From a virus, in UHGV virus genome UHGV-0093507: DNA of 24,963 bases. The stretch is one strand, 5' to 3'. The position numbers and the translations under genes were made by a program. Positions 14,137 to 24,963 of this stretch are shown here, piece by piece (the first letter of the stretch is position 1; each line of letters starts with the position of its first letter). The notes below the pieces were generated by a model. It saw nothing but the letters and a program-made list of their open reading frames with translations, searched no databases and was not told the DNA's origin.

Positions 14137-14538
14137 GTGAAAGACATCACATATTGGAATGATAAAATTCAGAAACAAATTGATAGTTATCCTGAAGCTG
14201 TTCGAGAAAGGATAAATTTTGAGCTTGTTGCACTGCAGAGCGATTGTCCTCATTCTTTCGACAGTTTCGATTTTCCAGTGGATGGTGATGATGCCTTGGG
14301 GGTTCCACCTGCTCAAAAAAAATCAATGCGGGAAACGATTGGTCGCTACGCAATGCAATTAACCATCAAGAGTAGTGATTCTTATCGTATGATTTACGTT
14401 GCGAAATTTGCGGAGTCTGTTTACATACTTCATACATTTAAGAAAAAGACAAATGGTGTGTCAAAAAAAGAATATGAGACAGCTGCCGCAAGATACAAAC
14501 AATTAGTGGAGTATCGTCGTAAAAATGGCTTAAGATAG
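14137..14538 (+). CDS. Gp49-like / HigB-like RelE-superfamily toxin candidate
   Basis: GTG start with RBS gagagg upstream. C-terminal motif YRMIYVAKFAESVYILHTFKKKT…KKEYETAAARYKQL matches the Gp49-like (DUF891) pattern. A TATAAT hexamer at 14100-14105 and a ttgtgcaaatttgtgcaca repeat lie upstream. Confidence 0.6.
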   Translation: MKDITYWNDKIQKQIDSYPEAVRERINFELVALQSDCPHSFDSFDFPVDGDDALGVPPAQKKSMRETIGRYAMQLTIKSSDSYRMIYVAKFAESVYILHTFKKKTNGVSKKEYETAAARYKQLVEYRRKNGLR

Positions 14539-14608: not shown

Positions 14609-14926
14609 ATGGAATTCGTCGTAGTCAAAAACCCTTATGCGTCATCAAGTAGCTCTGTAAATGAAGCTAGTGATAAACACATCCGGGCCCAATTAATGGT
14701 TATTATCCGAAAAATGATTCAGGAGCGCGGTCTTACCCAGCGAGAAGCTGCTGAATTGCTGGAAACAACCCAACCAAGAGTAAGCGAAATCATTAATGGT
14801 AAGTTAGATAATCATACCATTGATCGACTGTTTATCATGCTAAACATCCTGGGGTGGGATTTTAAGTTTGGGTATTCCGGTGGGGTTGTTACTGCGACGG
14901 CAGAACATTCCTGTCAGGTTGCATAA
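14609..14926 (+). CDS. XRE-family helix-turn-helix protein, HigA-like antitoxin/regulator candidate
   Basis: 105-aa ORF with HTH signature ERGLTQREAAELLETTQPRVSEIINGK; immediately downstream of the Gp49-like gene (toxin-first HigBA-type arrangement). Confidence 0.65.
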   Translation: MEFVVVKNPYASSSSSVNEASDKHIRAQLMVIIRKMIQERGLTQREAAELLETTQPRVSEIINGKLDNHTIDRLFIMLNILGWDFKFGYSGGVVTATAEHSCQVA

Positions 14927-15284: not shown

Positions 15285-15599
15285 TCATTCAGGAAAAAAT
15301 TCCTGAATATTCTTTTTTATTTGACTTATATTCTGATTTTTGCAACCAACAGGCTCGCTGTTATGCCAGCCCCATATGTGATTGTTGGCAGGCATATTTT
15401 CCCCCTCTGACCATTCAGCCAGCCAGTAAGCAAAGGCAGGATCGTTTTTAATGAGTGCCAGTCCAGCCAGAAATGCCGCGCGTTGCGCGCGGCTGCGTTC
15501 GGAGGCTGGCAGGCTGTCGAGATAATTACACGCTTCCCGTTCACTCTTGACTGCAGCTGGCTTCAGATAGAAACTTATCCGTCTGGTTGGTGTCGTCAT
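15285..15599 (-). CDS. parR: ParR-like partition adaptor (type II, actin-type partition system)
   Basis: ATG at 15599 with AAGGAG RBS overlapping the parM stop. 104 aa; the N-terminal segment RISFYLKPAAVKSEREACNYLDSLPASERSRAQRAAFLAGLAL resembles plasmid R1 ParR as recalled from memory. The track ORF is longer (149 aa, alternative upstream start). Confidence 0.6.
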   Translation of the reverse strand: MTTPTRRISFYLKPAAVKSEREACNYLDSLPASERSRAQRAAFLAGLALIKNDPAFAYWLAEWSEGENMPANNHIWGWHNSEPVGCKNQNISQIKKNIQEFFPE

Positions 15600-15603
15600 T
15601 GGT

Positions 15604-16563
15604 TTACTCCTTGTCCATTGCGTACAGCCCATTAACCAGAGCAAACTGTGGCACCCCGTCCGCGATGAAAGTCGCATTAACTCCGCAGGCTTCGCGGATA
15701 GCGGGTGCCACAATCTCCGCCCCTCCACCGACAACCATCACCCGCCCGTAACCCGAAAAACCCGCCAGCGCGCGGCTCACGCGTTGTTTCAGTGTTTCTT
15801 CCTTTTCACGAATAACCGCCATCAGGCTGTTGTAATGCGCGTCATTGTGGATGTGCTGGCGCAGCCAGGCTTCATCATGGCGATGTTCGATAATGGTATT
15901 GGCGATGTGGTGACTGGTACGCATACCGTTAGTGGCCATCACCGACAGTACGGCATCGGCCATCAGGGAAACGCCTACGTGTGGATCGCAAAACACCTGG
16001 CTGATACCTGCCAGTTGTCCCTGAACCTTTGCCACATCCAGCGTGGTTCCGCCTAAATCCACAATCAGCAGGGATTCAAACGGACTCATGTCAGCCAGTG
16101 CTTTAAAGCCAGCCGGAATGGATTCAGGCATAACCCGCACGTTACGGATAGTGAATGCCTCACCGTTCTGGTACTCCACCGGGCGCATAACGTTTGCTTT
16201 TTTGCGGTTGATGTTGGCCATGTCCGGCTGTGCGTTTGTGTCGAAATATTCGCTCAGTGGCAGGGTGACAACCACATCCACTTCCTGTGGTGTGATGCCT
16301 GATTTGACCAGCGCGTGATGAATGGCAATGACATTCACATCGCTGTACTGGTATTGCGTGTCGGTCGTCTGGACAAAGCGATCACTGACCGGATCAAAAC
16401 CATAGCGCACGCCATCAAGCATGTAGTTCGCGGGCTGCGTGCCACCGAACGGCGCAGACCATTCCGACTTGAAGCTGTTCGGGCTGATGGCGTTGCGGCG
16501 TTCGCCGTTCTCAGTCCATGCCAGCTTGATGTTGGTGGAGCCGTCATCGATACAAATTTTCAT
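15604..16563 (-). CDS. parM: ParM/StbA-like actin-like segregation ATPase
   Basis: 319-aa ORF; N-terminal phosphate-1 motif MKICIDDGSTNIKLAW plus later motifs (PESIPAG, IVDLGGTTLDV, VMVVGGGAE) resemble R1 ParM as recalled from memory; RBS aagga upstream. Confidence 0.8.
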   Translation of the reverse strand: MKICIDDGSTNIKLAWTENGERRNAISPNSFKSEWSAPFGGTQPANYMLDGVRYGFDPVSDRFVQTTDTQYQYSDVNVIAIHHALVKSGITPQEVDVVVTLPLSEYFDTNAQPDMANINRKKANVMRPVEYQNGEAFTIRNVRVMPESIPAGFKALADMSPFESLLIVDLGGTTLDVAKVQGQLAGISQVFCDPHVGVSLMADAVLSVMATNGMRTSHHIANTIIEHRHDEAWLRQHIHNDAHYNSLMAVIREKEETLKQRVSRALAGFSGYGRVMVVGGGAEIVAPAIREACGVNATFIADGVPQFALVNGLYAMDKE

Positions 16564-22799: not shown

Positions 22800-23078
22800 T
22801 TATTTTGTCATCTGCACGTATTTTTCTGCGCTCCTGATTGTTTTCAGGAAAAGAGCGAAGAGATTTACTGTGCGTCTTGAGTTCTTTTCATCCTGGTTGA
22901 TGGGAATTGAACCTCTGTCAGCCTGTCTTTTCACTGTGTTAACAGCTTGGTTGGTACGCTTTGCGTAATCTTTCAGGCTTTCTTCAAGTACTGGTAACCC
23001 ATGCTCATCGCGGTAGGGATAGAACGCTGCTAAACGCTCAAAGTCTGCCTGTTCGTGTGTGTTCAGGACTTTTGCCAT
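22800..23078 (-). CDS. Cox-like / excisionase-type small DNA-binding regulator, first gene of the early operon, divergent from repressor C
   Basis: 92-aa ORF positioned exactly as P2 cox relative to C and the operators; possible HTH around AKRTNQAVNTVKRQADRGSIP. The assignment is positional, not from sequence identity. Confidence 0.45.
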   Translation of the reverse strand: MAKVLNTHEQADFERLAAFYPYRDEHGLPVLEESLKDYAKRTNQAVNTVKRQADRGSIPINQDEKNSRRTVNLFALFLKTIRSAEKYVQMTK

Positions 23079-23117
23079 GTGTGATAACCTGCGCTATCTG
23101 TGGTTGTTTGTGACTTG

Positions 23118-23170
23118 GTGTACTTATAAGTACACCTTGTGCGCAAGCTTAGTGTACTTATAGGAACACT
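23118..23170. promoter_or_regulatory. Immunity-switch operator region: an 18-bp perfect palindrome and a related imperfect second site between cox-like and C
   Basis: gtgtacttataagtacac (23118-23135, perfect palindrome) and agtgtacttataggaacact (23151-23170); the shared 11-mer gtgtacttata recurs 34 bp apart. TATAAG-like hexamers are embedded in both orientations. Confidence 0.6.
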
Positions 23171-23174
23171 GTCA

Positions 23175-23483
23175 ATGCTTATCGGTGAAAAAATTAGAGT
23201 GATTCGTGAATCAGAGGATTTAACGCGCGAAGAATTTTGCGGCCTGATTGATGTGCCTATCGGCACTTTGCGTCGTTATGAAACGGGGAGGATTGAAAAC
23301 ATAGGTGGCGAAGTGCTTATCAAGATTGTTAATCACCCTCGCTTTTTTAAGTACATGAATTGGCTTATGACGGGAAAAACAAATGAGGCTGCTGGGCAGA
23401 TCAGTCCGTCTCTCTCCCCTGATGGGCCAAAAAGCACATCGCCTTCTCAAAAACCCCGCAAGACTGGCACACAGCCCGGCTAA
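23175..23483 (+). CDS. C: Immunity repressor (P2 C-like)
   Basis: ATG at 23175 directly after the second operator. HTH segment (…REEFCGLIDVPIGTLRRYETG…) and C-terminal HPRFFKYMNWLMTGKTNEAAGQISPSL resemble P2 C as recalled from memory; the track ORF starts 12 codons further upstream. Confidence 0.7.
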   Translation: MLIGEKIRVIRESEDLTREEFCGLIDVPIGTLRRYETGRIENIGGEVLIKIVNHPRFFKYMNWLMTGKTNEAAGQISPSLSPDGPKSTSPSQKPRKTGTQPG

Positions 23484-23532
23484 TCATGGAGCGCTGGGGG
23501 CATGGTGGTCTTGTAACGCTGGGGTTTCACGA

Positions 23533-24507
23533 ATGAGCATAAAATCAATTCCGGGAGGGTATCTTCTTGACATGCGCCCGGAGGGGCGTAAAGGCAAACG
23601 CATTCGTAAAAAATTTAAAACGAAATCGGATGCAGTTTTATATGAGCGGTGGGTGCTGGCGCAACAGCATAACAATGAGTGGAAAGGAAACTCCATTGAT
23701 CGCCGTCCGCTGTCAGTGCTTATTGACTTGTGGTGGAAATACCACGGCCAGCTAATGAAGTCAGGGCATAACACGCGCCTTAAATTGCTGCGCTTGAGTG
23801 AGGCAATGGATGACCCGTGCGTGCATAAACTTAATACAACGATGCTCACCGAGCTACGTGTGTCCAGGATAGAGCAGGGGATACAGCCCAGCACCATAAA
23901 TCGAGAGATTGGGGCGTTAAGCGCGATGTTTACCGCACTCATCTCATCCGGCCATTTTCTTAACGATAACCCCGTTCAAGGCCTTAAAGGAATGAAGGTT
24001 AACGAGCGCGAAATGGGATATCTGAGTAAGTCTGAATGTGTTCAGTTGCTGGATGCACTGGCTGAAAATCCCGATGAACGGCTGGCTGTCGAAATCCTTC
24101 TGTCGACCGGGGCGCGATGGGGCGAGGTAGCGGCACTGGAGCAGCGCCGTGTTCTTCATTGTCGAATCACTTTTTCAAAAACGAAGAACAGCAAAAACCG
24201 TACCGTTCCTATTTCTGAAAGCCTGTTTGAAAAGATCAAAAAACGGGGCGGGAAACTGGTGTTTCCGACGCTGGATTATCCATTGGTTCGCGATGTCATC
24301 AAAACGGTCGCACCTGATGTTCCTGATGGCCAGGCTGTTCATGCGCTGCGCCACACCTTCGCCAGTCATTTCATGATGAACGGCGGCAATATTCTGACGC
24401 TCCAGAAAATTCTGGGGCACGCAAAGATTCAGACAACGATGATTTATGCCCATCTTGCGCCGGATTACTTGCAGGATGCGGTGAGATTTAATCCTATTGC
24501 TGGGTAA
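23533..24507 (+). CDS. int: Tyrosine integrase (P2 Int-like site-specific recombinase)
   Basis: ATG at 23533 gives MSIKSIPGGYLLDMRPEGRKGKRIRKKFKTKSDA…; C-terminal catalytic signature …HALRHTFASHFMMNGG…LGHAKIQTTMIYAHL (R-H-R-Y family); downstream of C as in P2. Confidence 0.9.
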   Translation: MSIKSIPGGYLLDMRPEGRKGKRIRKKFKTKSDAVLYERWVLAQQHNNEWKGNSIDRRPLSVLIDLWWKYHGQLMKSGHNTRLKLLRLSEAMDDPCVHKLNTTMLTELRVSRIEQGIQPSTINREIGALSAMFTALISSGHFLNDNPVQGLKGMKVNEREMGYLSKSECVQLLDALAENPDERLAVEILLSTGARWGEVAALEQRRVLHCRITFSKTKNSKNRTVPISESLFEKIKKRGGKLVFPTLDYPLVRDVIKTVAPDVPDGQAVHALRHTFASHFMMNGGNILTLQKILGHAKIQTTMIYAHLAPDYLQDAVRFNPIAG

Positions 24508-24517
24508 GGAGGATGTT

Positions 24518-24913
24518 GTGGAAAAAACAGTTAATAGCGATTTGCATTTAGGTCAGTACTGGAGAATAGACATTGTCTGCGATCCAGAACTTCGAGATGA
24601 GGTTGAGCAATATTTTTCTCGACACGATGTTGGTTTTAGCAAAATTGAAGTTTTTTCCGTCGAAAATCCATATAAACTTGCTCTGTTCTTTGATTTCGCG
24701 AAGAAGGGTGTGGAGGTTGCAAAAGCCATTATGGGACTCTTAGACCGAAATGATATTGAAATAACGATGTATCGTGCTACGGACAGTAGCCCGCAGTCTG
24801 TAAAAAGCATCAAATTGCGTAAGTCTGAAGACGTAGAGAAATGTAAAGATTTGCTTAGTACGTGTGTCGCAATTGGCGTTCAACGAAATAAGGAAAAAGA
24901 GGGGAGCGAATGA
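24518..24913 (+). CDS. Hypothetical AT-rich protein immediately downstream of int
   Basis: RBS aaggagg (24506-24512) inside the int 3' end with a GTG at 24518. About 131 aa, Lys/Glu-rich, no family recognised; lower GC than int. Confidence 0.4.
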   Translation: MEKTVNSDLHLGQYWRIDIVCDPELRDEVEQYFSRHDVGFSKIEVFSVENPYKLALFFDFAKKGVEVAKAIMGLLDRNDIEITMYRATDSSPQSVKSIKLRKSEDVEKCKDLLSTCVAIGVQRNKEKEGSE

Positions 24914-24963
24914 TCCACAAAGTGACCACATCCCTGTTATTTGTTGTGGTTGGCTGTGTTTTT
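24910..24963 (+). CDS. 5' fragment of a gene encoding a signal-peptide or lipoprotein-like N-terminus (runs off the window)
   Basis: ATG at 24910 overlaps the previous stop (ATGA); translation gives MIHKVTTSLLFVVVGCV…, hydrophobic with a Cys. Confidence 0.3.
   Translation, partial: MIHKVTTSLLFVVVGCVF

Follow-up and report, generated by a model that had tools for sequence, protein, structure and literature searches.

A variable accessory-gene slot between int and the predicted attachment site of a P2-like prophage, probably integrated between ihfA and btuC of Escherichia coli

Classical prophage morons, or lysogenic-conversion genes, lie next to attP, the gtrABC genes of P22 and of Shigella phages being an example. 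The attP of P2 carries Int arm-type direct repeats (tgTGGaCa) on both arms, an IHF site in the P arm and Cox boxes (Nilsson et al. 2011, PMC3448106). An accessory and defence hotspot of P2-like phages was described in 2022 (PMC9122126), and the slot between int and att has already been noted as a cargo hotspot of P2-like prophages in a 2026 survey (PMC13100340). PP_SE11-4, a P2-like prophage of E. coli SE11, was located ‘between btuC and ihfA’ with a 25-nt duplication (Oshima et al. 2008, PMC2608844). That paper gives the site and the duplication length only; the arm sites, the cargo slot and the 131-codon gene described below (ORF131) are absent from it.

The window (the whole 24,963-nt stretch of the virus genome UHGV-0093507 that was analysed) resembles PP_SE11-4 in its insertion site, the length of its att duplication (25) and its P2-type gene order. 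Our reading is that the window ends inside the attR of a P2-like E. coli prophage located between ihfA and btuC, that Int arm sites lie close to its end and that ORF131 is cargo; we give this a probability of roughly 0.85. Known P2-like prophages have this insertion site, core length and attP architecture, and the layout is ordinary and has been described before. What is added here are the limits of the slot at the level of the nucleotide, the reassignment of a supposed signal-peptide gene to the P arm, and a protein family, that of ORF131, which flanks attP on either side. The slot has been little studied in P2-like phages; its two edges, the stop codon of int and the first arm repeat of Int, are defined to the nucleotide.

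The lysogenic operon begins with the gene for a C-type immunity repressor with a helix-turn-helix motif (23175–23483, plus strand). Its counterpart in NCTC9022 is a RefSeq ‘helix-turn-helix transcriptional regulator’, and the syntenic genes match HTH_3/HTH_31 of Pfam. It is followed by int (23533–24507, plus strand, stop codon TAA at 24505–24507), which encodes a P2-family tyrosine integrase of 324 residues; the Pfam domains Int_N and Phage_integrase are found on the syntenic genes. The integrase is 48% identical to the Int proteins of P2 and Wphi, and none of the deposited phages has an Int more than 60% identical to it. Both genes are on the plus strand, with int downstream of C and reading towards attP, which is the P2-type arrangement. 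NCTC9022 differs from the window by a single mismatch over positions 23377 to 24963. Upstream of 23377 (about 23000–23377), the two are unrelated, placing a mosaic joint inside the C repressor gene; the immunity region has therefore been swapped independently of int and the cargo.

ORF131 (24518–24913, plus strand) starts with GTG 11 nt after the int stop and ends with TGA at 24911–24913. The sequence-only reading had described it as an AT-rich ORF of 131 codons, and this is borne out: its GC content is 0.402 (int, 0.493; the window, 0.528), which falls into the lowest 3.7% of 396-nt windows, and the same 131-codon ORF appears in the RefSeq annotation of related genomes. The ribosome binding site had been placed inside int. 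The Shine–Dalgarno sequence AAGGAGG (24506–24512, plus strand), located 5 nt before the GTG, overlaps the int stop codon only.

The boundary of the prophage was located using closely related complete E. coli genomes, in which ihfA/btuC is the insertion site. Because the source of the window is absent from the complete genomes (the best match among those searched has 98.1% identity over 91%) and the window stops before the core, we infer the boundary from near-identical relatives, although they locate it firmly. At the right end of the NCTC9022 prophage, the order is repressor, int, the 131-aa ORF, 189 nt and then btuC-btuE-btuD-nlpC; at the other end, about 35 kb upstream, pheS-pheT-ihfA are followed by hok/gef, ogr and the tail genes. 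The unoccupied ihfA–btuC spacer of K-12 is only 100 nt long and contains neither ORF131 nor the ORF downstream of it. Comparison with this uninterrupted host locus, which the sequence-only reading had recommended, identifies the att core duplication. A 25-bp sequence, GGCCGCTCTGCGGCCTTTTTTCTTT, is identical in attL (left-end locus of NCTC9022, L002 7632–7656), attR (right-end locus, L001 13521–13545) and the empty attB of K-12, and neither flank extends the match. It corresponds to the rho-independent terminator hairpin of ihfA; there is no tRNA at the junction. In window numbering, projected from NCTC9022, the attR core would be located at about 25020–25044, its first base 57 nt after the last base of the window. 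Judging from the relatives, the sequence past the window would run ...GTGTGTCTGTAAGCCTTTGATAATTATCTAACTTATTGATTTTTGTTTGTGTTTAT, then the core GGCCGCTCTGCGGCCTTTTTTCTTT, then TCACTGTCG... and btuC. Integration would leave one copy of the core behind ihfA (attL) and the other behind the cargo (attR).

As the core lies downstream of ORF131, ORF131 is inside the prophage. The linkage to the host gene is essentially invariant: 158 complete E. coli genomes match a query from ORF131 to btuC without interruption, as compared to about 159 with ORF131. In megablast, the region 23500–24963 is present in 306 of the 5426 complete E. coli genomes, and it is chromosomal every time. Salmonella and an E. coli variant with 77% identity show the ihfA/btuC synteny as well. 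The earlier proposal that the boundary lies beyond the window, with the downstream ORFs as further cargo, holds for ORF131, with the core about 57–81 nt past the window end, but not for the supposed signal-peptide ORF, which is neither cargo nor host. The other option, that the att core overlaps these downstream sequences, is right only in that the P arm of attP begins in the window (24914–24930); the core itself is outside. An att core within 24508–24560 had been named as the finding that would make the ORFs host genes; judged from the 158 complete E. coli genomes, it is absent there. A direct repeat of 24508–24600 had been suggested as a mark of the other prophage end. Neither this segment nor 24508–24963 is repeated elsewhere in the window, and the other end lies outside it.

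Several features of the host site were also recorded. The Rfam sRNA STnc540 (RF02082) matches the unoccupied K-12 ihfA–btuC spacer (L003 3154–3312, minus strand) with 67.4 bits, as compared to a gathering threshold of 38. The central hairpin of the STnc540 model is formed by the 25-bp att core, and the prophage therefore splits this locus; the half at attR (L001 13480–13603, partly beyond the window end) scores 22.5 bits only. A promoter-like site (TTTTCA, 17 nt, TAAAAT; L001 13543–13571, beyond the window) begins within the final bases of the core and reads into btuC, and the btuC promoter is probably left intact by integration. In the Commun Biol 2026 survey (PMC13100340), ‘BtuC permease’ is entered as an auxiliary metabolic gene of P2-like viruses. 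Since prophages of this group end 58 nt upstream of the host btuC, this entry may reflect an over-called boundary instead of a phage gene. With the right end taken as settled at the ihfA terminator, two annotation errors are avoided, namely, the reading of an attP arm as a secreted-protein gene and of host btuC as a phage gene.

The outer edge of the attP P arm, which is the phage arm of attR, is predicted to be formed by two direct P2-type Int arm-binding repeats, TCCACA and ACCACA (TCCACAAAGTGACCACA, 24914–24930, plus strand). TCCACAAAGTGACCACA contains two CCACA repeats with a period of 11 bp. A second pair, TCCACGATGCGTCCACA, is located at the left end (L002 7696–7712), in the same orientation as the window pair and starting 40 nt beyond the core. 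The pattern occurs once in the 25-kb window, where 0.06 occurrences are expected, and once in the 20-kb left-end locus. Because the motif was defined after both sites had been seen, we regard this chance estimate as indicative only and the agreement with the anatomy of P2 as the stronger argument. In the P2 reference genome, TGTCCACAtagTGTCCACA starts 21 nt after the int stop, in keeping with the earlier statement that the attP of P2 lies just past the 3′ end of int, and a second pair is found on the other arm. Compared with the P2 repeat tgTGGaCa, the window copies match at 6 and 7 of 8 positions and the left-end copies at 5 and 7 of 8; TGTGG is kept in three of the four copies, and the fourth has CGTGG. 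The IHF consensus WATCAANNNNTTR is matched perfectly at two positions between the arm repeats and the core (L001 13474–13486 and 13493–13505) and once more in the P′ arm; all three are matches to the consensus only.

On each side of the core, the locus carries a pair of direct repeats that have a period of 11 bp and, with respect to int, the same orientation as in P2; in this, in its sequence matches to the IHF consensus between the arm site and the core and in an Int with 48% identity, it resembles the attP of P2. It differs in the core and host site, which is the ihfA terminator here and locI in P2, and in the distance from the int stop to the arm repeats, which is 406 nt here and 21 nt in P2. 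The longer distance arises because a gene, ORF131, is inserted exactly between int and the arm repeats. The cox-type gene of the phage is also unlike the cox of P2. From the pattern of repeats, 24914–24930 are predicted Int arm-type sites, and attP, though not its core, would begin inside the window. The order would be C repressor, int, ORF131, P arm (Int repeats, then IHF-consensus sites), core and host btuC.

The arm repeats are located in what had been taken for a signal-peptide gene. This ORF starts with an ATG at 24910 that overlaps the stop codon of ORF131 (ATGA), and the first 18 of its 21 codons lie in the window (24910–24963, plus strand). Its start is hydrophobic, as had been said, but in near-identical genomes it stops after 21 codons; the complete ORF, MIHKVTTSLLFVVVGCVFVCL, is located at L001 13411–13476 in NCTC9022. 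Its first 20 nt contain TCCACAAAGTGACCACA, and the RefSeq (PGAP) annotation of related genomes does not call it. A secreted protein was ruled out, as 21 codons are too short for a signal peptide and a mature domain and as the start codon and the C-terminal residues are not conserved among relatives. Seven prophages, of which three have ORF131-type cargo and four other cargo, were compared by alignment of the 230 nt that precede btuC. The homology common to all seven begins exactly at GATCCACA. In two cargo variants, the ATG is replaced by AAG or CAG, and the DNA downstream is conserved. Conservation in Salmonella is limited to the first 8 codons, which coincide with the arm repeats; little is kept of the last 13 residues. 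We judge the 21-codon ORF to be a by-product of GT-rich arm DNA, probably non-coding, and not a gene.

Alternatively, the ORF could be translated, in coupling with ORF131, into a small hydrophobic peptide of the membrane, such as a toxin or an exclusion factor. The ATGA overlap, the Shine–Dalgarno-like stretch GAGGGGAG located 6 nt before the ATG and the strongly hydrophobic sequence would fit such a peptide, and a frame of 21 codons is likewise open in Salmonella and the 77% variant. GAGGGGAG, however, is found with ORF131-type cargo only and also encodes the C-terminus of ORF131. The loss of the start codon in two variants with otherwise conserved downstream DNA argues against a peptide, as do the last 13 residues, which are poorly conserved from E. 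coli to Salmonella, and the coincidence of the 8 conserved codons at the start with the Int arm repeats. In our reading of the alignment, the E variant has 4 replacement and 2 silent changes, which also counts against a peptide. GT-rich DNA yields hydrophobic codons in any case, and PGAP makes no call. We therefore regard a real peptide as improbable and retain the reading of this stretch as P-arm DNA.

The segment between int and the arm repeats varies among prophages. A sensitive blastn search with 24508–24963 finds 304 genomes, of which 159 match over the full length and about 145 over the last 52–58 nt (the arm) only. Sister prophages have an int with mostly at least 95% DNA identity and the same arm, yet at least four unrelated gene sets replace ORF131. 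These encode proteins of 120 and 145 aa in VG38-53E1, a 166-aa protein and a DUF1640 coiled-coil protein in O157:H7 FRIK2069, proteins of 127 and 99 aa in ETEC4069, and a 132-aa protein and a DUF1640 protein in 2013C-3033. On the left side of the slot, the similarity among the variants is lost within the last four or five codons of int, and, relative to the last base of the int stop codon, the five cargo sets each start at a point between 14 nt upstream and 11 nt downstream. The anchors of the slot are the int stop and GATCCACA; the cargo is on the int side of the P-arm sites and the core and, hence, inside the mobile element. Since its content varies between a conserved int and a conserved arm, the int–att slot is a cargo hotspot.

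In this, the slot resembles the accessory and defence hotspot of P2-like phages (PMC9122126): it is short, has conserved anchors and holds at least five unrelated gene sets in otherwise near-identical prophages. It differs from that hotspot in that the five sets, ORF131 included, match no known defence family in PADLOC. PADLOC and Pfam scans of four alternative cargo proteins gave weak coiled-coil noise only. A role of the slot cargo in defence would be suggested by analogy only. Phage-defence screens could take in ORF131 and the four alternative gene sets as candidates at low cost.

ORF131 is a real gene. Its predicted product is a soluble, acidic 15-kDa α/β protein (pI 5.3), with a maximum 19-residue hydropathy of 0.99 and without a transmembrane segment or envelope features. 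It belongs to PHROG 14142 (‘unknown function’, E 1e-69). No match to ORF131 was found in Pfam, NCBIfam and PADLOC scans, in a tblastn search of 50,697 deposited phage records, in a scan of one genome per species or in a profile search of PDB sequences, and no paper was found on its RefSeq accession WP_000416306. AlphaFold with 43 sequences gives a compact α/β model (pLDDT 81, pTM 0.75) with the order β-α-β-β-α-β-β-α-β. Foldseek searches of PDB and BFVD with a first model (pLDDT 71) and of PDB only with this second model (pLDDT 81) gave no match at E 0.001, and the query-normalised TM-scores are 0.45 or below.

The relatives of ORF131 are confined to a narrow group of bacteria. A single-sequence search of 5.8 billion proteins gives 10 clusters, all from E. 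coli or Salmonella where a source is named. An exhaustive HMM search of 1.84 billion representatives gives 12 matches, including a 2029-aa repeat protein that we judged spurious. A broader profile search yields 68 proteins, annotated as hypothetical, and those with a named species are all from Enterobacterales. Across several genera of this order, the family is conserved over its full length from 98% down to 27% identity, with 10 invariant columns; several database entries are truncated (74–114 aa). The distant homologues (27–39% identity) come from Salmonella, Citrobacter, Yersinia enterocolitica, Klebsiella oxytoca, Pectobacterium and a metagenome contig, and sit in P2-like or HP1-like prophages, at the opposite (ogr) end. 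In the clearest loci, the order is host gene, terminator, CCAC-N7-CCAC arm repeat, hairpin, homologue and a convergent ogr. Yersinia has no more than a similar repeat, GTCCA, at its locus, and tail-fibre genes take the place of ogr in Salmonella and Citrobacter. The integration sites of these prophages differ (raiA, mlaA and yccJ). In the circular phage, the ogr end is the other flank of attP and the homologues have the orientation of int; the family is therefore an attP-flanking accessory gene of Peduoviridae.

A strong terminator-like hairpin precedes the distant homologues at the ogr end (about 4960–5000 in L014 and L021 and about 1320–1350 in L022). The gap from the hairpin to the start codon is about 15 nt in L014 and L021 and about 60 nt in L022; because the hairpin ends about 15 nt before the start codon, there is no room for a promoter in L014 and L021. 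In the prophage group of the window, the other attP-flanking slot is filled by a Hok/Gef toxin gene (L002 7918–8058 in NCTC9022, between attL and ogr and outside the window). A Hok/Gef gene also adjoins the Yersinia homologue of ORF131.

From the lysogenic operon to btuC, the plus strand has a single terminator-like site, the core hairpin at attR, which is also the first such site downstream of C, int and ORF131. A crude promoter scan found no plus-strand promoter-like site upstream of ORF131; it also missed Pc and is too crude to exclude an internal promoter. Because the cargo starts close to the int stop and no terminator is predicted before the core, ORF131 would be co-transcribed with C and int from the lysogenic promoter, the transcript ending at the att-core hairpin. 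ORF131 would therefore be expressed in the lysogen. In this respect, it resembles the morons on the attP side, as a low-GC gene added at the attachment-site end and likely to be expressed in the lysogen, and its base composition is distinct from that of its neighbours, as in the moron sense of Hendrix and colleagues. It differs from them in that no promoter of its own was found in the crude scan; it appears to ride the C–int operon and to use the att-core hairpin as a terminator. It also differs from morons of the gtrABC type in having no membrane or envelope features.

For the function of ORF131, we can offer a guess, namely, that it is a factor expressed in the lysogen and used in competition with other phages; this is possible, but we would not bet on it. 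Stated more fully, and equally tentatively, ORF131 could be the founder of an uncharacterised Enterobacterales-only family of about 130 aa without a detectable fold relative, found in both slots that flank attP and always in the direction of int, and a single-gene, lysogen-expressed anti-phage, superinfection-exclusion or anti-defence factor.

We also considered whether ORF131 serves site-specific recombination or the int operon as an accessory factor, for instance, by modulating Int or the assembly of the intasome. Such a role would agree with the position of the homologues, which lie directly inside the arm-type repeat at the end of Peduoviridae prophages, in the orientation of int across attP, and with the retention of the attP-side position although the integration sites differ. 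The sister prophages, however, carry unrelated genes beside the shared int and an identical arm, and ORF131 is therefore dispensable for this int/attP pair. Recombination of the P2 type is known to require Int, IHF and Cox only, and ORF131 has no DNA-binding domain or fold match. On this balance, a recombination factor is unlikely. Another explanation is that ORF131 is a decaying or non-functional hitch-hiker without a role; the absence of a known domain, the narrow taxonomic range and the truncated entries would be in line with this. The full-length conservation down to 27% identity with 10 invariant columns, the confident compact AlphaFold model and the near-perfect ribosome binding site speak for a functional protein, and we consider a hitch-hiker very unlikely. 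That ORF131 and the next ORF are host genes, with the att core right after int at 24508–24560, would suit the attP of P2, which follows int within about 20 nt, and the low GC content, which marks a different origin of ORF131 from that of int, but is refuted by the attB comparison and has next to no probability, as the K-12 spacer has no such genes, the only sequence common to attL, attR and attB is the 25-bp terminator downstream of ORF131, and ORF131 is found only together with this prophage (159/5426 genomes). ORF131 as prophage cargo is the reading that we keep.

Two further modules were seen elsewhere in the prophage. A Gp49-like (HigB-type) protein (14137–14538, plus strand) is followed by an HTH_37 protein (14609–14926, plus strand); the two resemble a toxin–antitoxin pair and occupy the classic hotspot of P2, which is flanked by replication gene A and portal gene Q. 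A plasmid-type partition module (15285–16563, minus strand), which consists of a ParM actin-like ATPase and a Plasmid_stab_B protein, adjoins replication gene A; partition modules in the P2 hotspot are mentioned by Rousset et al. (2022, PMC9122126).
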